Positions 3,564 through 44,791 are shown, counted from the first letter of the stretch. The stretch: 52,666 nucleotides of DNA from a virus (IMGVR_UViG_3300027821_000001:1-52666), one strand, 5' to 3'. Numbers and translations are program-made. The notes: a model not told the origin generated them from the letters alone.

Positions 3564-3688
3564 AGAACTCCCCAGACGGAAGTCAGGAACCATGGATAAC
3601 CTGGCGAACTGGGGTTCTCCGTAGGGCCAGATACGGAGACGGGTTGGCGACGCACCTGGCCAAAGCCTAGGTTTTGGTGAAGCGTCGC
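3564..3688 (+). ncRNA. Cluster of three intergenic stem-loops
   Basis: Stems 3564-3575/3609-3618, 3617-3623/3632-3638 and 3647-3653/3682-3688. Confidence 0.5.
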
Positions 3689-3709
3689 ATAATTTTCATC
3701 TCCTATAAT
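3685..3709 (+). promoter_or_regulatory. Phage promoter P1 (TCGC-N15-TATAAT)
   Basis: TCGC ATAATTTTCATCTCC TATAAT; motif recurs with fixed spacing. Confidence 0.8.
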
Positions 3710-3729
3710 GAAACCTAATAGGAGAAATT

Positions 3730-3939
3730 ATGTTGAATTCAGAGGCAGAAGCGATGCGAGATGAGCTCGTACGTTATACCGCTGAGCTTGACCAGATTCA
3801 ATCCAGTATCGATGAAGGTCGTCTGCTCTATGCAGATGATCCGATTTGTGTCAAGGAATTGGATCTGACTCAAGCTAATGTGGATCACGTTCGTCGCGAA
3901 ATCCGCATTGCTCGACTCTGTATCAAAGAACTTTCCTAG
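3730..3939 (+). CDS. Hypothetical protein (P1 cassette)
   Basis: AGGAG RBS, between P1 and a terminator. Confidence 0.75.
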   Translation: MLNSEAEAMRDELVRYTAELDQIQSSIDEGRLLYADDPICVKELDLTQANVDHVRREIRIARLCIKELS

Positions 3940-3945
3940 CAAGGC

Positions 3946-3980
3946 AAAAATCAGAGTTCTTCACGGACTTTGATTTTTTT
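3946..3980 (+). terminator. Intrinsic terminator
   Basis: TCAGAGTTC/GGACTTTGA stem followed by T7. Confidence 0.8.
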
Positions 3981-4001
3981 ATTTCGAAAGGAGGGTAGCG
4001 A

Positions 4002-4190
4002 ATGGAGGAGCGTCAAATCTTCTTCAAGAAGCAGACGCTTGGAAAGTGGCGGAGATCCGACGGCGAAAGCAAGAAGCTTGTCAATGAAGAATCGATGTTC
4101 CGAGAGATTCGCAAGCTGATTAATGACGGCTGGAATGTACAGTCTCATGGCGTTACTCTCCTGCGTGCGATCACTTTGACTAAGCGATAA
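4002..4190 (+). CDS. Hypothetical protein
   Basis: AAGGAGG RBS. Confidence 0.7.
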   Translation: MEERQIFFKKQTLGKWRRSDGESKKLVNEESMFREIRKLINDGWNVQSHGVTLLRAITLTKR

Positions 4191-4195
4191 AGACC

Positions 4196-4532
4196 CTCCG
4201 TGGGGCACCCGCGGAGATAGGACAGAGTTCCGCTTCTCTCATGCTGGGATGCTGGGATCACGGCTCTGTCTGGGCTCTAGTAGCGGGAGGTCTGATCAAC
4301 CGAGGCGAGGCTAGAGTGTTAGCGGTACGATACCAAATGGAACCCGCCTAAACGATGCACGGTATTACGCGGCTGACATAAGTTTCAAAAGTTCGGAGGG
4401 GCAGCGGTAGCGCCGTACCTGGGTAGCACCCAGGAGGCCACTTATCTTCTAAGCTATAAGCTTCGGTTTGGAAATAAGTGGTCGGCCCCCCGATCACAGA
4501 CTGAGGGCCTCACTGCGGCGGGGCCTTCAGTC
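4196..4532 (+). ncRNA. ORF-free tract of consecutive stem-loops
   Basis: Stems 4196-4216, 4221-4229/4262-4270, 4274-4280/4311-4317, 4317-4323/4372-4378; multibranch ~4397-4490 with a cUUCGg loop; hairpin 4499-4532. Confidence 0.6.
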
Positions 4533-4546
4533 AAATTTCCAAACTA

Positions 4547-4926
4547 CTAAGTCGGAAACAACGTTGAGGAGACAGTCCAGTGGTGTGGATAAGGAGTAGC
4601 TACCTTATTCGTATCCGCGGGATGTGAGGTGGCTCGAAAAGGACTATACTGGTTGTAGCTTGCGGCCAGTTAGTCGTGAAGGCGGGACTCGGCAAACGCG
4701 TTGTGCAAGCAGCGTTAGTAGCAGCCGAATTAAAGATACCCGAGCAATGGGGAAATCCCTGAGCGGAGGTATTGGGCTAGTTTTACAAACTAGTACAGCG
4801 GTGATCCGGTAGGATAGAGAAGGCTCTGAAGAATTGATTGCTATTATACAATGGCAGTGAGCTCTTCGGTCGGGAGTTGCCACAACACTTCCTCTCACAG
4901 TCTCTTCAACGTTGTTTCTGACTTAG
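4547..4926 (+). ncRNA. Large (~380 nt) structured RNA, family not recognised
   Basis: 27-bp closing helix 4547-4573/4900-4926 whose only deviations are 2 G-U pairs; many nested helices. Confidence 0.78.
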
Positions 4927-4933
4927 ATTGAAT

Positions 4934-4982
4934 CTCCGAGGTACGCCCACTCTGCGCCACAGGTGGGTTGAACCCCTCGGAG
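4934..4982 (+). other. Stem-loop
   Basis: CTCCGAGG/CCTCGGAG enclosing GCCCAC/GTGGGT. Confidence 0.5.
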
Positions 4983-4985
4983 CTA

Positions 4986-5033
4986 GGGCAAGAGGCATTT
5001 GGGCCGCCGCAACGATGTCTCTTGCCCGCTTTT
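4986..5033 (+). terminator. Probable terminator ending the RNA tract
   Basis: GGGCAAGAGGCATT/GATGTCTCTTGCCC stem then GCTTTT (short U-tract). Confidence 0.55.
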
Positions 5034-5042
5034 CCACAGAAT

Positions 5043-5067
5043 TCGCATTAATTACACGTATCATAAT
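5043..5067 (+). promoter_or_regulatory. Phage promoter P2
   Basis: TCGC ATTAATTACACGTAT CATAAT. Confidence 0.75.
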
Positions 5068-5090
5068 AGATACTACTACGAAAGGAAATT

Positions 5091-5213
5091 ATGCGATTTC
5101 TTGGAACCCATGAGGAGGAAGTTGTGCAGGCGTTGGCCATTGTTGGCGCTTACATCGTTATCCGCAACGGCCTCTCGCTGGTTACAAGTCTTCGACGTTC
5201 ACTGTCGAAGTAG
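5091..5213 (+). CDS. Small hydrophobic protein (40 aa; P2 cassette)
   Basis: AAGGA RBS; MRFLGTHEEEVVQALAIVGAYIVIRNGLSLVTSLRRSLSK; not in ORF track. Confidence 0.7.
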   Translation: MRFLGTHEEEVVQALAIVGAYIVIRNGLSLVTSLRRSLSK

Positions 5214-5215
5214 CT

Positions 5216-5256
5216 AAAGAAAGGAGAGTCTTAACAAAGACTTTCCTTTTTTCTTT
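5216..5256 (+). terminator. Intrinsic terminator
   Basis: AAAGGAGAGTC/GACTTTCCTTT stem plus T-tract. Confidence 0.8.
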
Positions 5257-5306
5257 TCGCAGAAGTAACTGGTCCTTTCTTTTTTTCAAAAGTGAAAGGC
5301 TAATAC

Positions 5307-5504
5307 ATGCTTTATAGAACAGTCGAAACAAATGAGCGGGTTAGTGTAGACGCTGAACTAACTACTCGCTTTCGTTGGCGAGCAAATCGACTATGTCGAC
5401 AACTGAATGCCCAACGAGAAGTTGATTTCTATCGATTCGAAGTTCATCCTGTGGGTGACAAATGGGAAGTTGTAGCGATGCAAAACAGAGCCGAGCCAAT
5501 ATGA
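5307..5504 (+). CDS. Hypothetical protein
   Basis: AAGG RBS; coupled to the next ORF. Confidence 0.65.
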   Translation: MLYRTVETNERVSVDAELTTRFRWRANRLCRQLNAQREVDFYRFEVHPVGDKWEVVAMQNRAEPI

Positions 5505-6121: not shown

Positions 6122-6142
6122 TAGAATTGAGGGAGATAATTA

Positions 6143-6343: not shown

Positions 6344-6456
6344 TGGAGAACCAACAAACACAATGCGCATGCACGAAATGTTCAGAAAGGGTTTCTAAAG
6401 ATGATTGGACATATCCGTATTGTCCGCGGTGTTTTGCTAATCCTAAATGTAAATGA
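6343..6456 (+). CDS. Small Cys-rich protein (37 aa)
   Basis: TAATG and ATGA coupling on both sides; [13 protein letters not shown]...YCPRCF. Confidence 0.55.
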
Positions 6457-7634
6457 GTATGGAACTTAAGCCCCATCAGAGATCTGCACTCGACCAGCTC
6501 GCTAATGGCAAAATTCTCTGGGGCGGGGTTGGCTCAGGTAAGTCACAAGTAGCAGCAACTTACTACATCGAGGAAGAGCGACCACGAGATGTGTATGTGA
6601 TCACTACCGCCAAGAAACGTGACACGCTCGATTGGGAAGGTGAGTTTGCTCCTCACGGAATCGGTAAAACACGAGATGCAACTGTCTCTGGTTTGCTGAC
6701 CGTCGATAGTTGGAACAACATCCATAAGTACACTGAAGTTAGCGGTGCTTTCTTTATTTTCGACGAACAAAGATTGGTTGGATCTGGAACCTGGGTAAAG
6801 TCGTTTCTGAAGATTGCCCGCCAGAATCGCTGGATTCTGCTCTCTGCAACTCCGGGGGATACTTGGCTCGACTATATCCCGGTCTTCATCGCCAACGGTT
6901 TCTACAAGAATCGGACCGAATTCAAGCGCGAACACGTGGTCTACAAGCCGTTCAGCAAGTTTCCTAAGGTTGAGCGCTATCTGAACACCGGTCGTCTAAA
7001 TAGATATCGCAATCAGATCTTGGTGCCGATGGCTTACACCAAGCTGACTACCCGCCATTCACGCACGATTCCAGTCGACCATAATGAGGAACTGTTTCAA
7101 AGCGTATTGAAGAATCGCTGGAACATTTTCCTGAATCGGCCGATCCGTGATATCAGCGAAACTTTTGCTGTTTTACGGCGAATTGTGAATAGTGATCCCA
7201 GTCGGGTCAAAGCCGTGAGAGAGCTTCTAAGCACGCATCCTAAGCTGGTAGTGTTCTATAACTTTAACTATGAGTTAGAGCGTCTACGGGCTTTAGAGGA
7301 CGTTACAGCGGTAGCTGAGTGGAATGGACACAAGCACGAAGAGATCCCTGAGGGTAATAACTGGGTTTATCTAGTTCAGTACGTAGCGGGCTCAGAAGGC
7401 TGGAATTGCATCGAGACCGATACGATCGTTTTCTACTCATTGACCTATTCGTACAAGAACTGGGAACAAGCACATGGTAGAATTGATCGACTGAATACAC
7501 CATTCCTGGATCTCTACTACTATACTTTAAAAAGTAAGAACGCGGTCGACACTGCAATCTGGCGGAGTCTGAAAGCAAAACAGAATTTCAATGTCGCCAA
7601 ATTTCCGATCGAAACACTGAAAAATATGAGTTGA
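6453..7634 (+). CDS. SF2 (SNF2-like) DNA helicase
   Basis: LKPHQ Q-motif, GVGSGKS Walker A, FDEQ Walker B, LSATP motif [11 protein letters not shown] motif VI. Confidence 0.9.
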
Positions 7635-7650
7635 AAGTCATAAAACAGCG

Positions 7651-7955
7651 TTGCCAAGATTTTTGCCAAGATTTTTAAATTATAGGAAAAGCCGCATTTT
7701 GCAGGGATTTTGTGCAATTTTGCTTGCCAAGAAAACACGTCCAAAAAGTCCCCTAGGGAATGTCATATAGTATCTAATTTTCTATACCCACGCGCGACCC
7801 CAAAGATAATATATATAATACCTAATAATAGATATTAACTAGAGAATCTATAGAGAGTTCTTCCTCAAAAAATCTTGGCAAGGAAAATAGGGCTCAAACC
7901 CGCATGAACAAAGGGATTGCACTACTTCAAGAAATCTTGGCAAAAATCTTGGCAA
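7651..7955. repeat. Putative replication origin: TTGCCAAG iterons in inverted arrangement around an AT-rich core
   Basis: Perfect 24-bp inverted repeat 7651-7674/7932-7955; extra iterons at 7724 (+) and 7874 (-); AT-rich 7761-7850. Confidence 0.65.
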
Positions 7956-8062
7956 AGGAAGGAGGTTGTTCATCAAGACTACTCACAAGTTAAAGGTGTT
8001 GAGAGATCCCCAAGGCTACGCAGCTTTCCCAAGTGCTTTTAAACGGGTGGAGAAAGAAGGTT

Positions 8063-8557: not shown

Positions 8558-8565
8558 ATATTAGT

Positions 8566-8590
8566 TAGCGCCTAATTCGCGTAGTATAAT
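8566..8590 (+). promoter_or_regulatory. Variant phage promoter P3
   Basis: TAGC GCCTAATTCGCGTAG TATAAT AGAA with the same spacing; followed by GGGAT/ATCCC hairpin and T-tract. Confidence 0.5.
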
Positions 8591-8641
8591 AGAAGGGATA
8601 GAACATCCCATTTATTTTTTCTGCGAAGGAGGCACTAAATT

Positions 8642-9217: not shown

Positions 9218-9228
9218 GAGGTGCCACT

Positions 9229-9546: not shown

Positions 9547-10048
9547 TCAATATCATTGGATCCACTATACACCGGATCGATTGATTGAACGTTGGACTTC
9601 AGCTCAAGCCGGAGCATATGGTGTCGCGCAGCATGATTATGCTCAGAGAGAAATTCAAGCTGGTCGAGTTTCGGATCTCGTCGGAACTGTGGGTATGTAT
9701 ATTAACGACGCGATTCAACATAGAATGACCTGCGAACAAGTTCTATTTTACTCTGAGAATTGTTTTGGTACTGCAGATACAATCTCCTTTCGATACAATA
9801 CTCTTCGAATTCATGATCTAAAAACTGGCGTGTATCCAGGCTCAGTACATCAACTCGAAGTTTACGCAGCTTTGTTTTGTCTTGAATACGATAAGAATCC
9901 ATTCGAGATTAAAATTGAACTTCGAATCTATCAAGATGATGAAGTTTCGGTCTATGATGCTGACCCAGAGGATATTATGTTTATCATGGAAAGAATTCAA
10001 GAATTCGATAAAGTAATCAATCATCGAAGACTAGAGGAGGAGTCGTGA
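9491..10048 (+). CDS. PD-(D/E)XK exonuclease-like protein (DUF2800/Cas4-like)
   Basis: HAFLSPS, EQ.L, FGTAD, IHDLKTG and QL.VYA motifs. Confidence 0.8.
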   Translation: MRFNRHLNLQGEHAFLSPSQYHWIHYTPDRLIERWTSAQAGAYGVAQHDYAQREIQAGRVSDLVGTVGMYINDAIQHRMTCEQVLFYSENCFGTADTISFRYNTLRIHDLKTGVYPGSVHQLEVYAALFCLEYDKNPFEIKIELRIYQDDEVSVYDADPEDIMFIMERIQEFDKVINHRRLEEES

Positions 10049-12786
10049 TTCGTACTCATGAGGATCATCTTGCGCATTACGGTATCCTCCGACGTTCCGG
10101 CCGTTATCCTTGGGGATCTGGTGGTACTCAAAATAAGCGCAATCGAGACTTTCTCGATATGGCGGCTAATTTAAAAAAGCAAGGGATGACTGAAAAACAA
10201 ATTGCCGATGGTATGGGTATTACGATTAAAGAACTTCGTGGTGCTCGAACAGTTGCTCTTGCTCAGCAGCGACAAACGAATATTCTTACTGCGCAGCGTC
10301 TGAAAGATAAGGGTTGGTCTAATACCGCAATTGGTGAACGTATGGGTCATCCCGAATCGACAATTCGTGGTTGGCTTTCTCCAGGTGCAAAAGATAAGGC
10401 GAGTGCACTCGAGACCACAGCCAATATGCTCAAGGAGCAAGTCGATAAGAAGAAGTATGTTGATGTAGGTAAAGGTGTTGAACATCAACTAGGCATTACT
10501 AATTCTCGACTCAATAATGCGCTTGCTGTTTTGAAGGAACAAGGATACCCCGTTCATACCATTTATGTTGAGCAAGTTAACATTCGTGGTAAGTTTACAC
10601 CGATGCAGGTATTGGCTCGACCAGGCACTAAGCTTTCTGAAGTCCAGCAAAACAGAAGAGAAATTCAACAGATTCAAGAACAGTCGATCGATCATGGTCG
10701 AAGTTACTTTAGTCCTCAGGCTCCTCTTTCCGTTGGTTCTAGACGAATCGGTGTTGTTTACGGTAAAGAAGGTGCTAAGGCAGATGGCATGATTTATGTT
10801 CGTCCTGGTGTACCCGATCTTGCTATTGGAAACAATCGTTACGGTCAAGTTCGAATCTTGGTTGATGGTACACACTACTTGAAAGGCATGGCGGTTTATA
10901 AGGAGGATCTTCCTCCGGGCAAGGATCTGATCTTTAATACAAAGGCTGCTGATACCGGACGTAAAAAAGATGCTATGAAACCAATCTCTGAAGATCCGGA
11001 TCTTCCGTTTGGTTCTATCATTCGACAAGTACATGATCCAAAAACGGGTAATGTTACCTCGGCTATGAATCTAGTTGGCAGTCCAACTAAAGAAGGATCT
11101 GGAGAAGAAGGTCAATGGGATACTTGGTCTCGAAATCTTTCGTCCCAGTTTCTGTCTAAGCAAAGTCCAGCTCTAGCAAAGCAGCAACTTGATCTAACTT
11201 ACGATCGGCGCAAAAGAGAATTCGATGAAATCAATGCGCTCACAAATCCAACAGTTCGGAAAGATTTGCTTGAGAAATTTGCAGATCAAACCGATGCTGC
11301 AGCTGTACATCTTAAGTCTGCCGCTTTGCCGCGACAAGCAACTAAAGTTCTAATTCCCGTTCCATCCATGAAACCAACTGAAATTTATGCCCCCACCTTC
11401 AAAGATGGCGACCGTGTTGTTTTGGTTCGTTATCCTCATGGTGGAACATTTGAAATTCCTCAACTGACAGTGAATAATCGCAATCGTGAAGCACGCAAGC
11501 TAATCGGAACTGGTGCTGATAGTACGAGACACGATGCTGTTGGTATTCATCATAAGGTTGCACAACGTTTGTCTGGTGCAGACTTCGATGGTGATACGGT
11601 GCTTATCATTCCTAACAAGAGTGGAAAGATTGAAAGTACCGCTGCTCTAGAAGGATTGAAGGGCTTCGATCCGATGACCTATAAACTACCCAAAGATTCT
11701 CCCATTCCTCGTATTACTAATGCTCGCAAACAAAATGAGATGGGTAAAATCTCCAATCTAATTACGGACATGACTCTTCAAGGAGCGGATACAGATAAAC
11801 TCTCTCGTGCGATTAGACACTCCATGGTTGTTATTGATTCGGAAAAACATGGGCTTGATTTTGCTCAGTCAGAGAAAGATCATGGTATTCTTGATTTGAA
11901 AGAAGAGTATCAAGGTTCGAAGCGAGCAGGTGCTCAGACCATAATCAGTAGGAAAAAATCGCCCATTCGCATAGAAGAGAGAAGACTTAGGTCTGCAGCA
12001 AGAGGTGGACCGATTGATCCTGTCACAGGCAAGAAAGTTTTCGAACCAACTGGACGTACGTTTCCAGAACGTAAACGTGTAAAGGATCCTAAGACAGGAA
12101 AGATGGTCACCGTTAAAACTGGAGTACAGATTAAAAGGAAAGAAGAACATCGAAAGCTGGCTGTAGTTGATGACGCGTTCGATGTCATTCCGAAAGAACG
12201 TACTCCTACCTCTATGGAAGTACTCTATGCAACTCACTCTAATAAACTAAAAGCTTTGGCTAATGAAGCTAGGAAAGAAACAGTAACGATTAAAGGTACC
12301 CCCTATTCTAAGTCAGCCAAGAAGGTATACGAAACCGAAGTGGCTTCAATTAATGCTAAACTTAACCGGGCCGAGAAGAATGCCCCCTACGAAAGACAGG
12401 CCCACCTGTTAGCAAACGCCAATGTCTCCCAGAAGAAACAGGTTAACCCACAGATCGAGGCTGCTGAAGAGAAGAAGATTCGACAACAGGAGTTGAATAC
12501 AGCAAGAGTTAGAACAGGTGCAAAGAAGTATAAGATCGATCTTACTCAAGAGGAGTGGAATGCTATTCAAGCTGGTGCAATCACTCCCTCTAAACTGGAA
12601 AGAGTTCTGAACAATAGTGATAGCGATACCGTTAAGGTATTGGCTATGCCCAAGCATACACCAACAATGACAAGCAGTAAGGTACGTCGTGCTCAGGCTA
12701 TGTTGAACTCTGGGTACACACAGGCTGAGGTAGCTGATGCATTAGGTGTAGGCTTGACCACACTCAAGGTAAGTCTTACTGAGTGA
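10045..12786 (+). CDS. Single-chain two-barrel (YonO/QDE-1-like) RNA polymerase with N- and C-terminal HTH domains
   Basis: ADG (10780), QVR...LKGM (10846-10890), VRYP (11425), GADFDGD (11575-11595), GKISN and HSMVVIDSEK in the order found in cellular RdRp/YonO. Confidence 0.8.
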   Translation: MIRTHEDHLAHYGILRRSGRYPWGSGGTQNKRNRDFLDMAANLKKQGMTEKQIADGMGITIKELRGARTVALAQQRQTNILTAQRLKDKGWSNTAIGERMGHPESTIRGWLSPGAKDKASALETTANMLKEQVDKKKYVDVGKGVEHQLGITNSRLNNALAVLKEQGYPVHTIYVEQVNIRGKFTPMQVLARPGTKLSEVQQNRREIQQIQEQSIDHGRSYFSPQAPLSVGSRRIGVVYGKEGAKADGMIYVRPGVPDLAIGNNRYGQVRILVDGTHYLKGMAVYKEDLPPGKDLIFNTKAADTGRKKDAMKPISEDPDLPFGSIIRQVHDPKTGNVTSAMNLVGSPTKEGSGEEGQWDTWSRNLSSQFLSKQSPALAKQQLDLTYDRRKREFDEINALTNPTVRKDLLEKFADQTDAAAVHLKSAALPRQATKVLIPVPSMKPTEIYAPTFKDGDRVVLVRYPHGGTFEIPQLTVNNRNREARKLIGTGADSTRHDAVGIHHKVAQRLSGADFDGDTVLIIPNKSGKIESTAALEGLKGFDPMTYKLPKDSPIPRITNARKQNEMGKISNLITDMTLQGADTDKLSRAIRHSMVVIDSEKHGLDFAQSEKDHGILDLKEEYQGSKRAGAQTIISRKKSPIRIEERRLRSAARGGPIDPVTGKKVFEPTGRTFPERKRVKDPKTGKMVTVKTGVQIKRKEEHRKLAVVDDAFDVIPKERTPTSMEVLYATHSNKLKALANEARKETVTIKGTPYSKSAKKVYETEVASINAKLNRAEKNAPYERQAHLLANANVSQKKQVNPQIEAAEEKKIRQQELNTARVRTGAKKYKIDLTQEEWNAIQAGAITPSKLERVLNNSDSDTVKVLAMPKHTPTMTSSKVRRAQAMLNSGYTQAEVADALGVGLTTLKVSLTE

Positions 12787-13071: not shown

Positions 13072-13239
13072 GTGATCATTCTGTCTCAACGACGACGACT
13101 TGAGCGTCGAGCGTTAGCTACAATTGCAGGAACACCAACTAAGTCCAGCAGCGATGAGGCAAAGTTAATGGCAAGAGTTGCTAACGATGCGCTTCAAGGA
13201 AAAAATTTTAGAACTAATTGGGGGAGAAAATTTTTTTAG
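13072..13239 (+). CDS. Small basic hypothetical protein
   Basis: AGGAG RBS before GTG. Confidence 0.45.
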   Translation: MIILSQRRRLERRALATIAGTPTKSSSDEAKLMARVANDALQGKNFRTNWGRKFF

Positions 13240-13314
13240 GGGGGAGGGGTAAAAATTTTACACCCCCCTCTAGCATCGCCCGGCTTCCAAAAATTTCCCC
13301 GGGGGATATTTTGG
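13238..13314. other. Putative cos/packaging site (candidate overhang CGCCCGGCT, 13277-13285)
   Basis: GC-rich 9-mer flanked by inverted repeats 13238-13270 and 13287-13314, upstream of terS and HNH. Confidence 0.55.
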
Positions 13315-30544: not shown

Positions 30545-31357
30545 ATGGCTACAGTTACTGGTCTTACTGCCGAACGAATGCTGGAAATTGAAGCGGCATC
30601 AGTTGTTGATGGTGATGTTGTTTCTGGCAATTTGATTCTTACCAAACACGATGGATCAACAATTAATGCTGGCGCCGTAATGGGTCCAACGGGTGCTACG
30701 GGACCGACAGGACCACCTGGTGCTACTCCAACTCCAGGCCAGATGATGATTCCAGGTGAGATCAAAATGTGGCCGAATAGTGTCCTACCTGAGTTGGCTC
30801 TATATGGGCTTTGGACTTGGGCTAATGGTGGTATATTTGACGTGGCAGCATATCCAAAAGCAAACTCGCATATTGATCCGGCGTGGAAAACTGCGATGGG
30901 TCTACCTGATCCTGGTGCTGGTAAGTTCCGAGTGCCTGATTTGCGTGGTCTCACCCCAGCTGGTCTTGATGCCATGCCTGTTGGTAGTGCGCGTGCTAAT
31001 CGTGTAGCTCGAGCTGTCGCAATTATCCTCGCAAAGAATACAGGCGAGGAGTATCATGTAGTTAGCGTTGGTGAGATGCCTTTCCATGGGCACGGTGGTT
31101 CTATTAGTCCTGCCGGAGCTCACTCGCATACTCCCGACATTAATAACGATTTCCTGACTGGTGCACGAGGAGGTGCAACTGCCGCGCTCGGTTCGGGTGG
31201 TACGGCTCGCTTCATTGCAAGTAACTCTCGATTCACCACGAATGGTGTTGGAGATCATGCTCACGGTCTGACAATTGATGGTGCTGGTGGCGGTGGTGGA
31301 CATGAGACCATGCAGCCTACAATCTTTGTTCCTTATATTGTGAAGTTGGACGATTAA
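30545..31357 (+). CDS. Minor tail/fibre protein with collar domain
   Basis: Collagen linker, PGEIKMW, FRVPDLRG, HxH motifs, H..MQP......YIVK. Confidence 0.78.
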   Translation: MATVTGLTAERMLEIEAASVVDGDVVSGNLILTKHDGSTINAGAVMGPTGATGPTGPPGATPTPGQMMIPGEIKMWPNSVLPELALYGLWTWANGGIFDVAAYPKANSHIDPAWKTAMGLPDPGAGKFRVPDLRGLTPAGLDAMPVGSARANRVARAVAIILAKNTGEEYHVVSVGEMPFHGHGGSISPAGAHSHTPDINNDFLTGARGGATAALGSGGTARFIASNSRFTTNGVGDHAHGLTIDGAGGGGGHETMQPTIFVPYIVKLDD

Positions 31358-38255: not shown

Positions 38256-38263
38256 ACATTCTC

Positions 38264-38283: not shown

Positions 38284-38302
38284 AAGGAGGTTCTGACTAG
38301 CC

Positions 38303-39148: not shown

Positions 39149-40290
39149 TGGAACTTTTCACTCTGAATCGCAAGTTTCTTAAACAAGATCTAATCGACGG
39201 ATTTAATTCAGCTATTTGGACTGAACGATATTATGGTGATAGTGAAGTTGAGCTAGTAGTTCCACTGTCAGATGAGATGGTTCAGACATTGCCAGAAGGT
39301 ATATTTGTTGGTCTGACTGGATCCGATGAAGTGATGATTATTGAAAGTGTAAGTACGGACAATAGTAATGGTACTCTAAAAGCTTCTGGAATTAGCATTC
39401 TAGCTTGGTTGAATAATCGCTTTATTCGAATATCACCCAAACACGACGAGAACACTTGGATGCTTACCGGCGGTGTGCCGGGTCAGTATTTATGGCTGAT
39501 AGTATATTACATGTGTTGTCAAGGAAGTCCATATTTGAATGGTACCTATGATATCGGTATTCCCAATCCACAACAACTGATAATTCCAGGCTTAGGTCTT
39601 AAGGCTTATGACGCCTCGGGCGATGTTGTTGATATTGCCGTTGATTACCGCGACCCAGTTTATGATGCTTTGCGGAAAATTGCAACTGCTTATCAAATTG
39701 GCATGAAAATTACACTAGACTCAGCCGATGATAATTCATATTTCCTTGGTTTTCGAAGTTACAAAGGGCTTGATCGTACTAGTGCTCAAAACGCAAATGT
39801 AATTGTTCGATTTTCTCCACAGATGGATTCTTTGACGAATATCAAAGAAGTGCGATCGATTGCTGCACTCAAAACCGTGGTATATACCTTCGCTTCGTCG
39901 CTAGATGATGCGGATAAACCACTAGCGACAGCTCCTGGTGAAGCTAGATTAACCGGAACACAATATACCGGATTTGATTTGCGCGCTCTAATGGTACTCG
40001 TAGATAGTATGCCTACGCACGATGTAATTGCAGGAAACGCACAAGTAATCAAAAATGCTTTGATAGCACAAGCTAATTTGAATCTCGCTAATAATAGGTT
40101 TATAGCTATTGTCGATGGCGAAATTGTTCCTGCGAATGAATTTCAGTATGGGGTTGATTATACTCTTGGTGATGTGGTTGAAGTACAAGGAAATAGCGGT
40201 ATAACTCAACGAGTTCGAGTTACCGAGTATATTCGTGCACAAGACGAGGCAGGAGAAAGAGCATATCCAACTGTGGTGGCCCTTGACTAG
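39148..40290 (+). CDS. Baseplate hub/minor tail protein (ReqiPepy6 Gp37-like)
   Basis: S.IWTERY...E.EL N-terminus; F.YG.DY.LGD.V...R.TEYI C-terminus. Confidence 0.78.
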   Translation: MELFTLNRKFLKQDLIDGFNSAIWTERYYGDSEVELVVPLSDEMVQTLPEGIFVGLTGSDEVMIIESVSTDNSNGTLKASGISILAWLNNRFIRISPKHDENTWMLTGGVPGQYLWLIVYYMCCQGSPYLNGTYDIGIPNPQQLIIPGLGLKAYDASGDVVDIAVDYRDPVYDALRKIATAYQIGMKITLDSADDNSYFLGFRSYKGLDRTSAQNANVIVRFSPQMDSLTNIKEVRSIAALKTVVYTFASSLDDADKPLATAPGEARLTGTQYTGFDLRALMVLVDSMPTHDVIAGNAQVIKNALIAQANLNLANNRFIAIVDGEIVPANEFQYGVDYTLGDVVEVQGNSGITQRVRVTEYIRAQDEAGERAYPTVVALD

Positions 40291-40304
40291 GAGGAAGCCG
40301 TGAG

Positions 40305-40559
40305 ATGAATATTTTTTATGGGCTGCTAATCTGGACTGGTGGCTTAATAATCGGTTTCCTGCTTAGAGTCTGGATAGGAAGAGTAACTGGCTATACAGGA
40401 ACTATTTTTGTTAGTAGAACGGAACAAAAGACTGTATATACGCTCGAGCTCGAAGAATACCCAGACGAGATCCGATTTAAAAAAGAAGTAGTTTTTAAAG
40501 TAGATGCTAGTAACTTCGATGAAGTCGATATTTCTGAAAAAAGCTCTAATCGCGAGTGA
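40305..40559 (+). CDS. Membrane protein
   Basis: N-terminal TM helix; AGGAGG RBS. Confidence 0.7.
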   Translation: MNIFYGLLIWTGGLIIGFLLRVWIGRVTGYTGTIFVSRTEQKTVYTLELEEYPDEIRFKKEVVFKVDASNFDEVDISEKSSNRE

Positions 40560-40574
40560 AACATTGCGTATAAT
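40550..40574 (+). promoter_or_regulatory. Phage promoter P4
   Basis: TCGC GAGTGAAACATTGCG TATAAT. Confidence 0.8.
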
Positions 40575-40596
40575 GAGACTCTATCGAAGGAGAACT

Positions 40597-40881
40597 ATGT
40601 TTTCTAGGTCGAATGCCGCAACTCTAATCGAACTCGCGTATAACAGAGCGATTCGTGAGTTGAGTGGTCATGAGATCGGCTCGGAAGAATACAAGACGAT
40701 TTTGGACAGAGCAGTCACATTGCAAAAGCTGATGGATGAAGAAAAGCCATCATCTGTAAGCAAGGACACTCTGGCCGTTATCGGTGCAAATCTGCTGGGC
40801 ATTCTCATGATCATCAAACACGAAAATATCAACGTCATTACGTCGAGAGCGATGAATTTGATCATGAAGCCAAGAGTGTAG
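40597..40881 (+). CDS. Hypothetical protein with C-terminal hydrophobic segment (P4 cassette)
   Basis: AAGGAG RBS; between P4 and a terminator. Confidence 0.78.
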   Translation: MFSRSNAATLIELAYNRAIRELSGHEIGSEEYKTILDRAVTLQKLMDEEKPSSVSKDTLAVIGANLLGILMIIKHENINVITSRAMNLIMKPRV

Positions 40882-40900
40882 TTCCAAAGAAGAGATCAAG

Positions 40901-40940
40901 ATATGGAGGGCCGCAAACGCGGCCTTTCATATTTTTTTTT
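40901..40940 (+). terminator. Intrinsic terminator
   Basis: 14-bp stem ATATGGAGGGCCGC/GCGGCCTTTCATAT followed by a long T-run. Confidence 0.88.
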
Positions 40941-40980
40941 CGATCTAGAAAAAACCCCGGGGGAAGATTTCAATAAAAAG

Positions 40981-41005
40981 TCGCAGTTATTACATCGCGT
41001 ATAAT
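40981..41005 (+). promoter_or_regulatory. Phage promoter P5
   Basis: TCGC AGTTATTACATCGCG TATAAT. Confidence 0.82.
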
Positions 41006-41080
41006 AGAGAGTAATCATGCCTCATATAACTGCAAAACAAAAGTGCGCAGTTGGACTGCAGGAACGGTTACTCTCTTTTT
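41006..41080 (+). ncRNA. Small RNA 1 (~75 nt; P5 cassette)
   Basis: AGAGAGTAATC/GGTTACTCTCT closing stem; inner AACTGC/GCAGTT; T-tail; no RBS. Confidence 0.65.
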
Positions 41081-41104
41081 CGCGATAATTACACGTTATA
41101 TAAT
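41080..41104 (+). promoter_or_regulatory. Phage promoter P6
   Basis: TCGC GATAATTACACGTTA TATAAT. Confidence 0.82.
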
Positions 41105-41133
41105 GAAATGTAAATCTTTATCAAGGAGTAATT

Positions 41134-41256
41134 ATGAATTACGGATTCGGGAAATTTATCCTAGATTTGCTTCTGATCACCTTCACCGGTGGTCTTTGGC
41201 TAATCTGGATCTTTATTCGCGAAATGCGTAGACGTAGCATCATCGTTATAAAGTAA
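41134..41256 (+). CDS. Small membrane protein, TGGLWLIWIF paralog A (40 aa; P6 cassette)
   Basis: AAGGAG RBS; MNYGFGKFILDLLLITFTGGLWLIWIFIREMRRR...; not in ORF track. Confidence 0.8.
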   Translation: MNYGFGKFILDLLLITFTGGLWLIWIFIREMRRRSIIVIK

Positions 41257-41265
41257 CCGCATTTC

Positions 41266-41297
41266 AAAGAGAAGGCCCCACATGGGCTTTCTTTTTT
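41266..41297 (+). terminator. Intrinsic terminator
   Basis: AGAAGGCCC/GGGCTTTCT stem plus T-run. Confidence 0.8.
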
Positions 41298-41300
41298 CAT

Positions 41301-41325
41301 TCGCAGAAAAAACATCCTATATAAT
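41301..41325 (+). promoter_or_regulatory. Phage promoter P7
   Basis: TCGC AGAAAAAACATCCTA TATAAT. Confidence 0.82.
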
Positions 41326-41369
41326 GAGATAGGAAAATGCTTGTCGTTGAAGACAAGACCTATTTTTTT
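41326..41369 (+). ncRNA. Small RNA 2 (~45 nt; P7 cassette)
   Basis: GAGATAGG/CCTATTTT outer stem; CTTGTC/GACAAG inner stem; T-tail. Confidence 0.55.
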
Positions 41370-41389
41370 CTTTTTTCTATGAAAGGATT

Positions 41390-41521
41390 ATGATGGAACA
41401 GGGGGCAGTTGAAGAAGCGCGTCGTTTGCTGGGCGAAGCAGTTGAGAAAATTGCCCTAGCATTCCTCGCACTTGAGATGACTGAAACTGAGCTAGACGGA
41501 GCCGATGAGCAGGCGGCTTAG
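41390..41521 (+). CDS. Small acidic protein (43 aa)
   Basis: AAGGA RBS; MMEQGAVEEARRLLGEAVEKIA...; not in ORF track. Confidence 0.6.
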   Translation: MMEQGAVEEARRLLGEAVEKIALAFLALEMTETELDGADEQAA

Positions 41522-41529
41522 TTTTTTTT

Positions 41530-41679
41530 CTAACCCAGTGGGAGGCTACCTGATATTGAGGGGCGACAAAAGTTATAGGTCGTACAACCTATAGCCACAA
41601 AGCGTCCGCCTTGTACGGGGAAAGTGTCGCTAACGGGTAATTCCCGCAGAGCGGCCCAGGTAGTCTCCCAGTGGGTTAG
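41530..41679 (+). ncRNA. 150-nt structured RNA with kissing-loop pseudoknot
   Basis: 23-bp closing helix 41530-41552/41657-41679; GGCGACA/TGTCGCT; hairpin 41572-41595; loop CGTACAA pairs with TTGTACG (41611-41617). Confidence 0.75.
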
Positions 41680-41752
41680 TTAAGCGAACCGTTGGACAGT
41701 ACAGTCCCGGAAGACACGGCGGATAGGGTTCGATTCCCTATGTACAGCTTAA
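41680..41752 (+). ncRNA. tRNA-like element lacking an anticodon arm
   Basis: T-arm ATAGGG-TTCGATT-CCCTAT (41723-41741); D-loop-like AGTCCCGGAAG; acceptor-like GTTGGACA/TGTACAGC; outer TTAAGC/GCTTAA. Confidence 0.6.
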
Positions 41753-41766
41753 GTTGTCTAATTCAC

Positions 41767-41917
41767 TCAGTCCTGATATTGAGGTTAGCTACACCAAGAC
41801 ATATCGGCTGAAATATAACAAGTGGCTAGTTGCAACGGCGGACAGTCCATTGGAAGGCAAACGTACTTAAAAGTCAGTGGAGTGTAAGTTGTACGTTGAA
41901 AAACTCCACCTGTCCGC
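41767..41917 (+). ncRNA. Two tandem pseudoknot modules
   Basis: 41767-41779/41801-41811 crosses 41786-41792/41822-41828; inside GCGGACAG/CTGTCCGC, AACGTAC/GTACGTT crosses GTGGAGT/ACTCCAC. Confidence 0.6.
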
Positions 41918-41940
41918 TTTTCCTCAAATTAAGGAGATAC

Positions 41941-42150
41941 ATGTTGTTCAAGAATCGGTCATTCCTAGTTAAGTCGATCAAAGATAGCGATGTACAGACG
42001 ACTTTCCCTAATACTCCACCATATATGTTGCCCGATTTTGATCACATGGCCAAAATCATCACCAAGAGTGTAAGTACGTGCATTGCTGTCTACGTTGGTG
42101 CCGACACTATTCGGCGAGTTGTTGTTTACGCAATCTCGGCTAAATATTAG
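41941..42150 (+). CDS. Hypothetical protein
   Basis: AAGGAG RBS before ATG 41941. Confidence 0.7.
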   Translation: MLFKNRSFLVKSIKDSDVQTTFPNTPPYMLPDFDHMAKIITKSVSTCIAVYVGADTIRRVVVYAISAKY

Positions 42151-42168
42151 AAAGGATTGGGGTGATAG

Positions 42169-42402
42169 ATGCTTGAAATTATTCTAGCTATCCTCGTTCT
42201 GTTGACCTGGTGGGGTTTCTTGTTCTTGCTGCGAAAAGGTCGTGCCACGACGCGCCGTGAGATTATCGTGGAGTTTACCGCGAACACAAAAGCAATGGTA
42301 GACGCCCTTACTCGTTGTCAGGCCTCAGCACAATCCGCAGCTGAGGCGATGCGTCGATTTAACAAGGCGTGGAAAGAAGCACAATCTGAACAGAGGCTTT
42401 AA
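42169..42402 (+). CDS. Membrane protein
   Basis: N-terminal TM helix followed by a helical segment. Confidence 0.7.
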   Translation: MLEIILAILVLLTWWGFLFLLRKGRATTRREIIVEFTANTKAMVDALTRCQASAQSAAEAMRRFNKAWKEAQSEQRL

Positions 42403-42433
42403 TTTTTTGTAGAATTTATGAGGGGGAGCCGCC

Positions 42434-42613
42434 ATGAAATGCTTTTGGGCCCGCTGTCAGAACGAAGCGACAGAAACAATCAACGAGAGACCAGTTTGTG
42501 ATGATCCTATCTGCCAAGATTTGCTCAGACGAGGCTTTACCGATTTGCCTGTAACCAGAGGAAAACCGATCGTTCCAGTTTATATGTTTGACCCTTTCGA
42601 GACATCGCAATAA
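42434..42613 (+). CDS. Small Cys-rich protein (59 aa)
   Basis: GGAG RBS; MKCFWARCQNEAT...PVCDDPIC; not in ORF track. Confidence 0.6.
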   Translation: MKCFWARCQNEATETINERPVCDDPICQDLLRRGFTDLPVTRGKPIVPVYMFDPFETSQ

Positions 42614-42629
42614 AAACACATAGTATAAT
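42605..42629 (+). promoter_or_regulatory. Phage promoter P8
   Basis: TCGC AATAAAAACACATAG TATAAT. Confidence 0.82.
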
Positions 42630-42691
42630 AGAAGGTTAAGGCTCCAATAGAGCCGCCTCACTACTACGGTAGTGCGGTTCCTTCTTTTTTT
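42630..42691 (+). ncRNA. Small RNA 3 (~62 nt three-way junction; P8 cassette)
   Basis: AGAAGG/CCTTCT closing stem; GGCTC/GAGCC hairpin; CACTAC-TACG-GTAGTG with cUACGg tetraloop; T-tail. Confidence 0.68.
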
Positions 42692-42713
42692 ATTTTTTCG
42701 TAAAGGAGGTGTG

Positions 42714-42863
42714 ATGTACGTGTATGTCGTGCAGCAGAAGCAATATGGCTTCTGGAGTTTTGTCGGCGACGTCTTTATGTTCTTTCTAACGGGCGGTCTC
42801 TGGCTGATCTGGATCTTCGTCCGTGAGATGCGCAAGTCTAGGTCGTCTGTTCCATATTGTTAG
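42714..42863 (+). CDS. Small membrane protein, TGGLWLIWIF paralog B
   Basis: AAGGAGG RBS; YGF..F..D.....TGGLWLIWIF.REMR shared with 41134-41256. Confidence 0.8.
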   Translation: MYVYVVQQKQYGFWSFVGDVFMFFLTGGLWLIWIFVREMRKSRSSVPYC

Positions 42864-42870
42864 GTCGACC

Positions 42871-43038
42871 ATGCGAAGACGAAACTCAAAACTCTATCGC
42901 ATCCCTCTATATTTTCCGCCGGGTCTGACTCGAACTGTGTTTGTTAGAGGTACTACTCGTCGAGAAGCTGAAGCAAATGCGTTGCGGAAGTTCTCTGATG
43001 CAACTCGAGTAGATCGTTCAGCTCACCACCAAAATTGA
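42871..43038 (+). CDS. Small basic hypothetical protein
   Basis: Fills the gap between neighbours; start at MRRRNSK. Confidence 0.5.
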   Translation: MRRRNSKLYRIPLYFPPGLTRTVFVRGTTRREAEANALRKFSDATRVDRSAHHQN

Positions 43039-43048
43039 AAGGCTGAAT

Positions 43049-43858
43049 ATGCTGATCGGATTTTCCAGTCTGGTTCACAAAGCAAAGTTCTTGTTGAATG
43101 AGAATTCCACCACGATCCTAACGGGGGTGGGTGTAACTGGTACAGTCGCAACTGCATATTTGACCGGTCGTGCCACATTCAAAGCTGCAAAGATTCTGCA
43201 GGATGTGGAAGCAGAAAGACGAGTCTTTACGGAAGAAACTCCAGCTAATGGGACTGTATTGGCGATTCCAGAGCCGAAAGCGTTGACGAAGATTCGTTTG
43301 GTTTGGCGGCTATATTTGCCACCGTTTGCTGTAGGTATTACGACGGTTACCAGTATTATCGCAGCTAATAAGATCGCCTCGAAGAAGATTGCTGCTTTGG
43401 CCGTGGCTTCGGGGATTTCCGAACGAGCTCTGCAAGAGTACAAGGCTAAGGTAGTGGAGAAGCTGGGCGAAAAGCAGGAACAAGCTGTTCGTGATGAGAT
43501 CGCTCAGGATCGGGTCGATAAGCAGCCGGTAGGTCGAGAAATAATTATTGCCGGTTCTGGTGAGGTTCTCTGTTATGACATGCTGACTGGGCGATATTTC
43601 ACAAGCACGGTCGAGAATATCAAGCGTGCTGAGAATAAGATCAATCACGATCTGAATAACTTTATGTCAGCTAGCGCAAGTGAGTTCTACGATGAGCTCG
43701 GGCTGCCACCGACGACGTACACGGACAATGTCGGTTGGAATGCGAACGAACACGTCAAAGTGAGGCTCTCGGCAACGTTGTCTTCTGATCAGCGACCATG
43801 CATGGCGATTGATTTCGAGAATCCCCCTTTCCCGGACTATGCACGGCACTATGATTGA
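43049..43858 (+). CDS. Conserved phage protein (DUF6353-like), paralog A
   Basis: IL.G.G..G.V....L..RAT.K N-terminus and EFY..LGL......VGW...DF C-terminus shared with 46053-46979. Confidence 0.8.
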   Translation: MLIGFSSLVHKAKFLLNENSTTILTGVGVTGTVATAYLTGRATFKAAKILQDVEAERRVFTEETPANGTVLAIPEPKALTKIRLVWRLYLPPFAVGITTVTSIIAANKIASKKIAALAVASGISERALQEYKAKVVEKLGEKQEQAVRDEIAQDRVDKQPVGREIIIAGSGEVLCYDMLTGRYFTSTVENIKRAENKINHDLNNFMSASASEFYDELGLPPTTYTDNVGWNANEHVKVRLSATLSSDQRPCMAIDFENPPFPDYARHYD

Positions 43859-43932
43859 AGAGGATGGCCTCGAGGTTGCGATGGAGATCTCGAGCACTGT
43901 ACTGTGATTGCAGGTTTGGAAGGGATGCGGTA

Positions 43933-44133
43933 GTGAGCGAACCAACGCTCGAACAACTTGAGAATACTGCATTGGCACTAGGTCTTCCGATCTTGAGTGA
44001 AGGCTTGCGTCCACCATATTACGAAGAATCCTTGCGGAATCTTCATGCCATTGCTCAAAAAGCTCTAGATGGTGATGAAGAAGCTGCAAAAAAGCTCGTT
44101 ATGCTTCAAGGAATGTTCGGAAGAAAGGAATAA
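43933..44133 (+). CDS. Hypothetical protein
   Basis: GTG start after AGGGA; true start uncertain. Confidence 0.55.
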   Translation: MSEPTLEQLENTALALGLPILSEGLRPPYYEESLRNLHAIAQKALDGDEEAAKKLVMLQGMFGRKE

Positions 44134-44140
44134 ATAAGGC

Positions 44141-44752
44141 GTGCTCAAAAAGACGATTACTTACGAGGATTTCAACGGCGAGACAGTTAGTGAAGATTTT
44201 TTCTTCCATCTGTCCAAAGCTGAGCTAGTTGAACTCGAGTTGAGTCATGAAGGCGGTCTGTCTGCAGCGTTAGAGCGAATTATTGCAGCTGAAGATGGTA
44301 AGAGCATTATTGCCGAATTTAAGAACATTATTTTGAGCTCGTATGGTGTACGTTCAGAAGATGGTCGACGTTTCGTCAAGAATCAAACGCTACGAGATGA
44401 ATTTGAATCAACCGAGGCTTATTCTACTTTGTTCATGGAATTGGTCACGGATACCGATGCTGCGGTTGTGTTTGTTAACAATGTCATTCCAGCAGGAATG
44501 GCTGAGGAAGCCGCTAAGCTAGCACAAATTACACAAACTGAGCAAACTGAACAAACCGAACCTAAGCCAGAGCTCGAAGCGGTTCCAGCTCCTGAGGTTC
44601 CAGCTCCTGAAGTTCCGGTTCCTACTCCGGAACCGACTGTTTTAGGTAGAGCCGATATAGCAAGAATGTCGAGAGAAGAACTTGCAACGCTTGGCGATCG
44701 TATCCAAGCTGGAGAAGTGGTTTTGGCACCAGACGTTGAGAGTCAAACTTAA
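44141..44752 (+). CDS. Hypothetical phage protein
   Basis: MLKKTITYEDFNG....EDF.F.LSKAEL...YG.RSEDGRRF.K. Confidence 0.8.
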   Translation: MLKKTITYEDFNGETVSEDFFFHLSKAELVELELSHEGGLSAALERIIAAEDGKSIIAEFKNIILSSYGVRSEDGRRFVKNQTLRDEFESTEAYSTLFMELVTDTDAAVVFVNNVIPAGMAEEAAKLAQITQTEQTEQTEPKPELEAVPAPEVPAPEVPVPTPEPTVLGRADIARMSREELATLGDRIQAGEVVLAPDVESQT

Positions 44753-44766
44753 ATACCGGGGTATTT

Positions 44767-44791
44767 TCGCAGAGTAAACACGTACTATAAT
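44767..44791 (+). promoter_or_regulatory. Phage promoter P9
   Basis: TCGC AGAGTAAACACGTAC TATAAT. Confidence 0.82.

Follow-up and report, generated by a model that had tools for sequence, protein, structure and literature searches.

Which RNA polymerase reads a phage promoter that ends in a perfect TATAAT? This question is raised by the viral stretch IMGVR_UViG_3300027821_000001:1-52666, which at its full length of 52,666 nucleotides is termed the window in the following, and which carries a recurrent motif of the form TCGCR-N6-ACAY-N4-TATAAT as well as the gene of a 913-residue protein with the sequence DFDGD that models as a two-barrel RNA polymerase. A preliminary description of this DNA had taken the motif for a promoter of non-sigma-70 geometry with its start right at the end of TATAAT, as in T7-type promoters, and had assigned it to the phage enzyme rather than to the host holoenzyme. 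Our comparison of sequences and predicted structures leads to largely the same answer: with a probability of roughly 0.7, the nine sites of the window are promoters that are read by the phage's own DFDGD polymerase and not by the host sigma-A holoenzyme, and the promoter class is most likely specific to one phage supercluster. The sites are the following:

3685..3713, plus strand: putative promoter P1, TCGCA..TCAT..TATAAT followed by GAAA; 20-nt leader, ATG at 3730; matrix score 35.9
5043..5071, plus strand: putative promoter P2, TCGCA..ACAC..CATAAT followed by AGAT; ATG at 5091; after an 850-nt stretch without open reading frame (ORF); score 25.7
8566..8594, plus strand: putative variant promoter P9, TAGCG..TCGC..TATAAT followed by AGAAGGG; precedes the operon ending with the polymerase gene
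40550..40578, plus strand: putative promoter P3, TCGCG..ACAT..TATAAT followed by GAGA; leader to ATG at 40597; score 26.9
40981..41009, plus strand: putative promoter P4, TCGCA..ACAT..TATAAT followed by AGAG; preceded by a terminator at 40898-40945
41080..41108, plus strand: putative promoter P5, TCGCG..ACAC..TATAAT followed by GAAA; ATG at 41134, small membrane peptide; score 32.9
41301..41329, plus strand: putative promoter P6, TCGCA..ACAT..TATAAT followed by GAGA; terminator before, hairpin and T-run at 41340-41372 after
42605..42633, plus strand: putative promoter P7, TCGCA..ACAC..TATAAT followed by AGAA; exact pattern match
44767..44795, plus strand: putative promoter P8, TCGCA..ACAC..TATAAT followed by GAAACCCC; leader to ATG at 44818; score 35.7

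The motif clearly exceeds chance. All long ORFs of the window lie on the plus strand, and the exact pattern occurs six times on this strand (40550, 40981, 41080, 41301, 42605 and 44767), where 100 shuffles give an expectation of 0.00; TCGC-N15-TATAAT adds 3685 (seven matches versus 0.10 expected), and up to two mismatches add 5043 (eight versus 0.29, the largest count in any shuffle being 2). All eight copies previously listed are thus real, with an invariant distance of 15 nt between TCGC and the hexamer, and their combined form on the gene strand is TCGCR-N6-(A/T)CAY-N4-(T/C)ATAAT. The ACA is present in seven of the eight, with TCA at 3685, and the hexamer is always followed by GA (five sites) or AG (three sites), as had been reported; TATAAT itself, which had been ascribed to every copy, holds for seven, the copy at 5043 reading CATAAT. 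From the two variants that had been added, the one at 8566 (TAGCG-N6-TCGC-N4-TATAAT-AGAAGGG) is real and occupies a syntenic place upstream of the polymerase operon in relatives, whereas the one at 5257 is not supported, with TTTCTT, which is not AT-rich, at the hexamer position and a score below the matrix threshold. A matrix scan of the window gave ten hits (0.8 in shuffles), nine of them on the gene strand and none between 13.4 and 40.3 kb, so that all nine sites are confined to the non-structural arm of the genome. A search for direct repeats revealed no second recurrent motif and none for the late genes, and inspection of the genome ends of five phages by eye revealed no late-promoter motif.

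With respect to the host enzyme, the described non-sigma-70 geometry stands up: no TTGACA-like hexamer lies 16-18 nt upstream and no TGn extension is found at any site, and the TCGCR box ends 14 nt before the hexamer. Canonical sigma-70 matches are not enriched in the window (20 versus 25.0 expected, 19 versus 21.2), and none of the nine sites is among them. The same was found for the related Lactococcus phage 1706 (105 versus 116.6 expected, 72 versus 69.3), in which no host-driven entry point was located; a TTTACA of this phage was considered as a -35 element and rejected, as it lies only 5 nt from the hexamer.

The comparison with related phages is more informative, as the preliminary description had anticipated in suggesting a scan for co-occurrence with the DFDGD gene. 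The architecture, which consists of a TCGCA box, TTACA, five bases, an AT-rich hexamer and the purines GAGA, was found in all 15 polymerase-bearing genomes examined, the window among them, whose hosts include Arthrobacter, Gordonia, Streptomyces, Lactococcus and Faecalibacterium and thus belong to two phyla. A matrix built from 27 sites has high information at TCGCA (positions 0-4), TTACA (9-13), the hexamer (19-24) and GAnA (25-28), and gives 8 hits in Scap1, 9 in 1706, 10 each in Tatanka and Rickmore, and 2 weak ones in FP_oengus, versus 0.4-1.1 in shuffled genomes. On the gene strand, all these hits lie in the non-structural arm, except for one weak hit in Rickmore (13,036, score 10.3). For the first four phages the hit numbers are also the numbers of sites; FP_oengus has five sites of a variant form (ACGCG-nn-AAATACA-N5-CTTTAT or TTTTAT, then G), one of them 0.9 kb before the polymerase gene. 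The looser pattern TCGC-N15-TANNNT is found on the gene strand 9 times in Tatanka, 6 in Rickmore, 5 in Scap1 (4 good), 4 in 1706 (1-2 good) and once in FP_oengus, which has to be seen against 0-6 matches of reversed patterns. The core ACA-N5-TATART-RRR (reversed-pattern controls 0-2) recovers on this strand all sites counted in Rima (11), in the genomes G001, G005 and G008 (5 each), in G002 (4) and in G004 (1); it is absent from FP_oengus, G003, G006 and G007, which carry a different hexamer and were counted with variant sites (2 with TGTAAT in G003, 6 and 4 with TTATAT in G006 and G007).

This drift of the hexamer, which between lineages reads TATAAT, TATAGT, TGTAGT (Scap1), TGTAAT (G003), TTATAT or CTTTAT/TTTTAT (FP_oengus), bears directly on the question of the enzyme. 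Recognition of the -10 element by the sigma-70 family depends on the A in second and the T in sixth position. The window hexamers contain both (TATAAT in seven of eight, CATAAT in one), whereas the homologous sites of four related lineages lack the A at position 2 (TGTAGT/TGTAAT, TTATAT, CTTTAT), and in the other register the drifted hexamers lack the T at position 6. Among 80 polymerase loci in bacterial assemblies, the core was found 21 times in forward and 3 times in reverse orientation (controls 7 and 3), and 8 of these 21 forward occurrences precede the polymerase gene by 0.9-1.6 kb; a P9-like site before the polymerase operon is kept even in distant relatives.

Motif and enzyme also occur together in a set of 50,697 phage records, for which counts per genus, not accession lists, were compared. 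A 66-nt promoter-plus-leader query from Rickmore matched 219 records at 1069 places (Arthrobacter 69, Gordonia 55, Streptomyces 54, 'Siphovirus' 12, Lactococcus 8, Rhodococcus 4, Microbacterium 4, Curtobacterium 4, and in addition 5 Bacillus records and 1 Eggerthella record, for which E was 6 among the matches listed). The polymerase protein matched 250 records (Arthrobacter 95, Gordonia 55, Streptomyces 54, Lactococcus 13, 'Siphovirus' 12, Curtobacterium 7, Microbacterium 4, Rhodococcus 4, Faecalibacterium 2), and thus the same genera with near-identical record numbers. As the clade defined by a large terminase with at least 60% identity comprises 251 records and thereby about equals the polymerase carriers, enzyme and motif are inherited together. 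The sharing across two phyla, the matching record counts and the hexamer drift indirectly support the earlier assignment to a phage polymerase.

Where would transcription start? In 63 distinct sites that were chosen by their upstream sequence alone, with no downstream constraint, a contiguous conserved block runs into a purine start: position +1, counted from the first base after the hexamer, is a purine in all 63 (G in 53), +2 likewise in all 63, +3 in 60, and +4 is A in 58, whereafter +5 to +7 are mostly C. All but one of these 63 sites point along the gene strand. In addition, RNA structures begin at this position. The window contains two short transcription units for which this was apparent:

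41006..41079, plus strand: ORF-less RNA cassette; +1 to +11 form a stem with the 11 nt preceding the T-run; minimum free energy (MFE) -27.6 kcal/mol
42630..42690, plus strand: ORF-less RNA cassette; three-way structure in which AGAAGG (+1 to +6) pairs with CCTTCT, then T-run; MFE -25.4 kcal/mol

The T-run of the first cassette adjoins the next promoter, P5. The claim that in ORF-less cassettes the closing stem starts at the first base after TATAAT therefore holds for the cassettes of 40981 and 42605, while that of 41301 is ambiguous. When ten ORF-less or leader cassettes of four phages were folded, +1 paired with the base just before the U-run in six of them (40981 and 42605 of the window, 30960 of Tatanka, the cassette of G001/L063, and 36681 and 30609 of Rickmore); the folds of 41301 and 8566 of the window were ambiguous, and 31108 of Tatanka showed no +1 helix. 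A systematic scan found a helix of at least 6 bp between promoter-proximal bases and the bases before a T-run in 25 of 89 promoter instances, and such a helix starts between -6 and +3 in 17 of the 89, versus 94 of 3000 random positions (any such helix: 343 of 3000). Read-through transcripts are unlikely to explain the cassettes, because the units follow upstream terminators; if transcription began 7 nt later, the only hairpin next to the U-run would lose its 5' arm. Finally, ribosome-binding sites abut the hexamer in several low-GC or Firmicutes-type relatives and begin at +1 to +4, as in TATAAT-AGGAGGAAACGAA-ATG (G002), TATAAT-GAGAGGAAAGT-ATG (G001), TTATAT-GAAAGGAGTTGATATTTT-ATG (G006) and TATAGT-AGAAAGAAGGTATAACACT-ATG, of which 1706 has three copies and, at two further sites, close variants. 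This is the weakest of the four lines on the start site; an automatic count of ribosome-binding-site positions was set aside as noisy, as ORF-less cassettes give false calls. Purine run, closing helices and ribosome-binding sites together suggest that +1 lies at the end of TATAAT, as originally proposed.

The candidate enzyme is encoded near the end of the same arm:

10045..12786, plus strand: DFDGD gene, predicted 913-residue single-chain two-barrel RNA polymerase; DFDGD at 11581; assigned by structure match

The phage thus encodes a predicted two-barrel enzyme with a DxDGD catalytic loop, in which D513, D515 and D517 are invariant in an alignment of 15 sequences. Pfam recognizes in this protein only helix-turn-helix modules (HTH_23 and HTH_3, residues 83-111 and 884-907). 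Its AlphaFold model (predicted local distance difference test 77, predicted template modelling score 0.56) matches best the non-virion Thermus phage polymerases gp64 (8f72) and gp62 (8f5m), with Foldseek E-values of 9e-6 to 3e-5 and a probability of 1.00, followed by beta-prime and Rpb1 subunits (E 0.05-0.4), and by this criterion the protein models as a two-barrel RNA polymerase that is closest to gp64, at a sequence identity to gp64/gp62 of only 12-15%. A profile search of the Protein Data Bank was not used as evidence, as it returned weak helix-turn-helix matches only (best E 0.003; sigma factor SigL region 4 E 0.31). No second polymerase was seen in the window, and no T7-like domain was found by Pfam among 28 window proteins, which comprised 8 proteins including the polymerase and 20 of the non-structural arm. 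The corresponding protein of phage 1706 is 36% identical to the window polymerase and is listed as one of five YonO-like families in the available part of PMC2919709. For this protein family polymerase activity was already proposed in 10.1101/842583, which describes it as the signature of a supercluster that joins actinophages, Lactococcus 1706-like phages and Faecalibacterium phages; the text of this source as available contains no promoter analysis and the word 'promoter' occurs in it 0 times. In annotations, the polymerase of this clade has so far appeared only as helix-turn-helix protein or 'RNA-dependent RNA polymerase'.

On this basis, we propose the following mechanism. The promoter would be a contiguous block of ~30 bp in which TCGCR is followed by a spacer rich in A/T with TTACA(Y) at its end, then by five free bases, the AT-rich hexamer and an initiating purine run (GAGA, GAAA or AGAA), and the first purine behind the hexamer would be the transcription start. 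The hexamer would be no -10 element but the melted segment from -6 to -1, like the TATA of T7-type promoters, and the upstream boxes would plausibly be read by the helix-turn-helix modules of the enzyme. In this manner, the promoters would drive short early units with small proteins, small structured RNAs and two large structured RNAs, each unit being closed by a hairpin-plus-U terminator, and the variant P9 would drive the operon that holds the polymerase gene itself. The start at the end of TATAAT and the use of the phage enzyme gain indirect support from three aspects, as the hexamer varies between lineages, RNA features begin at +1, and the motif is shared by the phages that have the polymerase; that it is the DFDGD protein that acts at these promoters we infer from the same comparisons. 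For the late genes (13.4-40.3 kb), one may speculate that read-through transcription which starts in the polymerase operon crosses the joined cos site, or that another enzyme transcribes them.

The likeness to T7-type systems is thus only partial. Promoters of the T7/T3/SP6 type likewise are contiguous blocks of ~23-30 bp, in which an AT-rich segment directly precedes +1 and the transcript begins rich in purines, and in this respect the comparison made in the preliminary description is apt. The enzymes of T7, T3 and SP6 belong to an unrelated family, however, of which the two-barrel enzyme of the window phage is no member. A closer parallel is gp64 of Thermus phage P23-45, the closest structural match and also a single-chain two-barrel enzyme, which according to the available part of 10.1101/2022.12.01.518664 works from a promoter motif of its own in front of early genes, and for which co-occurrence of motif and enzyme in relatives was used as evidence, too. 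Differences are the smaller size of gp64 (about 590 residues) with no terminal helix-turn-helix modules, the GC-rich nature ascribed to its motif, and the second, virion-borne polymerase of P23-45 that makes gp64, whereas no such enzyme was seen in the window.

Several points weigh against our interpretation. Firstly, the window hexamer is identical to the perfect -10 consensus of sigma-70, so that a use by the host enzyme is possible in this phage. Secondly, as all recognizable promoters of the non-structural arm, including that of the polymerase operon, are of this class, the model needs an unexplained source for the first enzyme molecules; candidates are packaging into the virion (compare P23-45, N4 and crAss-type phages), an unrecognized host promoter, or weak transcription from the TATAAT sites by the host enzyme. 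Thirdly, the co-occurrence is confounded by common descent, because every polymerase-bearing phage belongs to one supercluster, and this supercluster has no polymerase-less relative that could act as control. Fourthly, the placement of the start rests on the positions of RNA features, and these are not uniform: an 11-bp closing stem from +1 at 30866 of Tatanka is absent from the minimum-energy fold, 8 of the 25 detected helices start outside -6 to +3, some reach into the hexamer (offsets -6 to -1), which may be incidental A/T pairing with the U-rich tail, and a start at +7 would still leave a partial ribosome-binding site in 1706 and in locus L130. Finally, YonO of SPbeta, which falls with the DFDGD protein into one broad group, the YonO-like two-barrel polymerases made of a single chain, transcribes late genes from a single start, as described in the available part of PMC5467207, which is the opposite of the placement in the window with its nine sites, all in the non-structural arm.

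What alternatives exist? As YonO is the only studied relative besides gp64 and serves late genes, it could be that the host sigma-A uses TATAAT as a -10 element with no -35 element and starts ~7 nt downstream, and that the phage polymerase, like YonO, takes care of the late genes. This would agree with the perfect TATAAT in seven of the eight window sites, with the position of the sites, which precede the polymerase gene within the early arm and thus lie where one expects promoters that depend on the host, and with the late region, which lacks the motif and therefore must be transcribed by something else. A 106-residue protein encoded at 940-1260 has an Rpf-type transglycosylase-like domain (PF06737, E 2.8e-16), which hints at an actinobacterial host in spite of 46% GC, and promoters with no -35 element are common in actinobacteria. 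Host use nevertheless leaves open why TCGCR and TTACA are kept at fixed spacing in phages of two phyla, why the hexamer turns into TTATAT, CTTTAT or TGTAAT in some lineages, and why the search of the 50,697 records did not find the motif in other phages of the same hosts. Moreover, purines at +1 to +4 followed mostly by C at +5 to +7 would make a poor start region for the holoenzyme, and closing helices and ribosome-binding sites already begin at +1. We therefore regard transcription of these units by the unmodified host enzyme as unlikely.

Equally, the host polymerase could be redirected by a phage specificity factor that binds TCGCR/TTACA. Middle promoters of T4 combine a MotA box near -30 with a -10 element, and the distance of 14 nt between the box and a -10-like hexamer comes near this geometry; a phage-encoded factor would also account for the conservation across hosts. 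However, the Pfam scan of the 28 window proteins, outside of which many small proteins remained, detected no sigma factor, no MotA-like protein and no other DNA-binding regulator, and the only helix-turn-helix protein among those scanned is the polymerase itself. Hexamers that lack A at position 2 and RNA features from +1 onward do not fit a sigma-70 -10 element in this case either, and the bootstrapping problem would be the same, which makes such a factor improbable. That the sites are no promoters at all but recombination 'boundary sequences', as the available part of 10.1101/2020.01.10.891226 describes for a repeat flanking a rearranging gene cassette of cluster AU phages, or operators for a DNA-binding protein, is very hard to reconcile with their strict gene-strand orientation (62 of 63), their position directly after terminators and 20-29 nt before start codons, the ORF-less units bounded by motif and terminator, and the one site kept before the polymerase operon in distant relatives.

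Returning to the phage polymerase as the enzyme that reads these sites, we note that the cluster AU repeat is probably the same element. In Arthrobacter phage Giantsbane it was described as a 32-bp intergenic repeat at 28.5-30 kb, which is present in all cluster AU phages evaluated and was interpreted as a recombination boundary or hotspot; 'promoter' and 'RNA polymerase' are absent from the text. Tatanka and the cluster AU phage Gordon are members of one genus, and the motif sites of Tatanka lie at 29.4-34.3 kb; it is from size and place that the identity is deduced. A published 'recombination boundary' can accordingly be re-read as a probable promoter. In the literature searched, outside of which are the older papers on ReqiPepy6/ReqiPoco6 and on 1706 and the supplements, neither a description of the motif as promoter nor a link to the polymerase was found. 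The promoter sequence of YonO is left undefined in the available text of PMC5467207 (2017), and no later definition was found in the literature searched. Promoters specific for phage polymerases as such are well known, but the consensus of this clade, its mimicry of a -10 element and the drift between lineages appear not to be. There are about even odds that all parts of the wider picture hold together, i.e. that this would be the first promoter consensus for the clade of YonO-like polymerases of 1706 and actinophages, with sigma-free recognition via terminal helix-turn-helix modules, a start at a hexamer that mimics a -10 element, a pairing of enzyme and promoter that is conserved and co-evolves in phages of Actinobacteria and Firmicutes, and an enzyme that could be carried in the virion or amplify itself. 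Such virion carriage or a self-amplifying loop may occur because every recognizable promoter of the early arm, including the polymerase's own, is of this class.

Research on single-chain two-barrel polymerases (YonO, gp64, crAss-type) treats them as models for the ancestral multisubunit enzyme, and a 30-bp promoter with lineage variants makes autonomous recognition, the pairing of modules with boxes, and bootstrapping during infection testable, for which culturable and harmless hosts exist in Arthrobacter, Gordonia terrae and Lactococcus lactis. If the interpretation is true, a compact orthogonal transcription system may be available. For annotation it is a warning that a perfect TATAAT is no proof of host-dependent transcription.

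Some further observations concern the transcription units. A hairpin with T-run lies at 8595-8620, within about 35 nt of P9 (window 8591-8625), and the same leader hairpin and T-run are found in the loci L083, L100, L130, L138 and L139, ~0.9 kb upstream of the polymerase gene, which suggests that a conserved leader terminator gates polymerase expression. Behind the first gene downstream of P8 there is a strong terminator (45085-45125, 16-pair stem and T-run), and as no recognizable promoter was found between this terminator and the replication genes (45144 onward), these genes must depend on read-through. Two small paralogous membrane peptides (41134-41257 and 42714-42863) share the sequence GGLWLIWIF(I/V)REMR, each encoded downstream of one motif promoter.

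In bacterial assemblies, 348 loci encode relatives of the polymerase, none with more than 52% identity to the window protein. Because some of them lie within large isolate contigs (Hungatella hathewayi, Cuneatibacter caecimuris, Blautia faecis, Lachnospira hominis, Enterocloster lavalensis), temperate members of the group probably exist. Metagenome-assembled genomes labelled Rothia, Actinomyces, Atopobium and Collinsella also carry the polymerase; labels such as Bathyarchaeum, Scandinavium and Bryobacteraceae resemble binning of phage contigs.

As to the genome as a whole, the window is a complete 52.6-kb cos phage, and the record spans the whole genome: bases 1-99 are identical to 52568-52666, a 99-bp direct repeat that indicates the overlap of a circular assembly and leaves a unique genome of 52,567 bp. 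In the record as deposited, the sequence is permuted with respect to the DNA of the virion, whose ends are placed by the following feature:

13230..13300, no strand assigned: cos-like genome end; G/C runs, GCATCGCC... before and ...AAAAATTTCCCCG after the end

This site (~13.24-13.30 kb) agrees in sequence with the physical genome ends of Scap1, Tatanka, Rickmore and 1706, and it makes the polymerase gene the second from the physical right end, as in relatives. The structural genes occupy 13.4-40.3 kb and include the large terminase (22577-24322), a protease-capsid fusion and the tape measure protein. The non-structural arm extends from 40.5 kb through the record end and start to 13.06 kb, with a primase-polymerase (DUF5906), an HNH endonuclease, an exonuclease-like gene and, as second-to-last gene, the gene of the DFDGD protein; the gene order is the same in Streptomyces phage Scap1. 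A 393-residue protein (6453-7634) with no Pfam match occupies the position of the Scap1 helicase. It is followed by a non-coding gap (7635-8030) with iteron-like repeats, namely TTGCCAAGA in direct orientation at 7651, 7663 and 7724 and TCTTGGCAA inverted at 7873, 7934 and 7946, which looks like a replication origin; the syntenic gap of Scap1 carries TTGACA/TTGTCA repeats. A box AGATATTA occurs in the gap (about 7829) and again just upstream of P9. Six sequencing runs, all of them DNA metagenomes from three studies, match the region 40001-45000 of the window.

The early arm also contains larger structured regions. ARAGORN detected no tRNA in the window, no Rfam family reached its gathering score across the whole window, and with E up to 1 nothing meaningful appeared in 40900-42750 or 3550-5320. 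The 850-nt ORF-less stretch between a small gene and P2 (4191-5040), which matches no Rfam family, folds with an MFE of -375.9 kcal/mol (z -8.49, none of 20 shuffles as good) and is possibly a large structured non-coding RNA; a short stretch similar to part of it (ggcaccaaatggaacccgc) occurs in locus L032. Downstream of P6, a 414-nt ORF-less stretch (41522-41935; MFE -146.3 kcal/mol, z -5.53, none of 100 shuffles as good) is closed by a long helix and contains a T-arm-like GGGTTCGATTCCC, with no Rfam match and no tRNA call by ARAGORN. Promoter-driven ORF-less cassettes in L040 (Tatanka 30891-30959) and L051 (1706, about 31075-31190) likewise hold tRNA-like parts, in which a GGTTCGAATCC or GGTTCGATTCC T-arm lies inside an extended closing stem that starts at +1.

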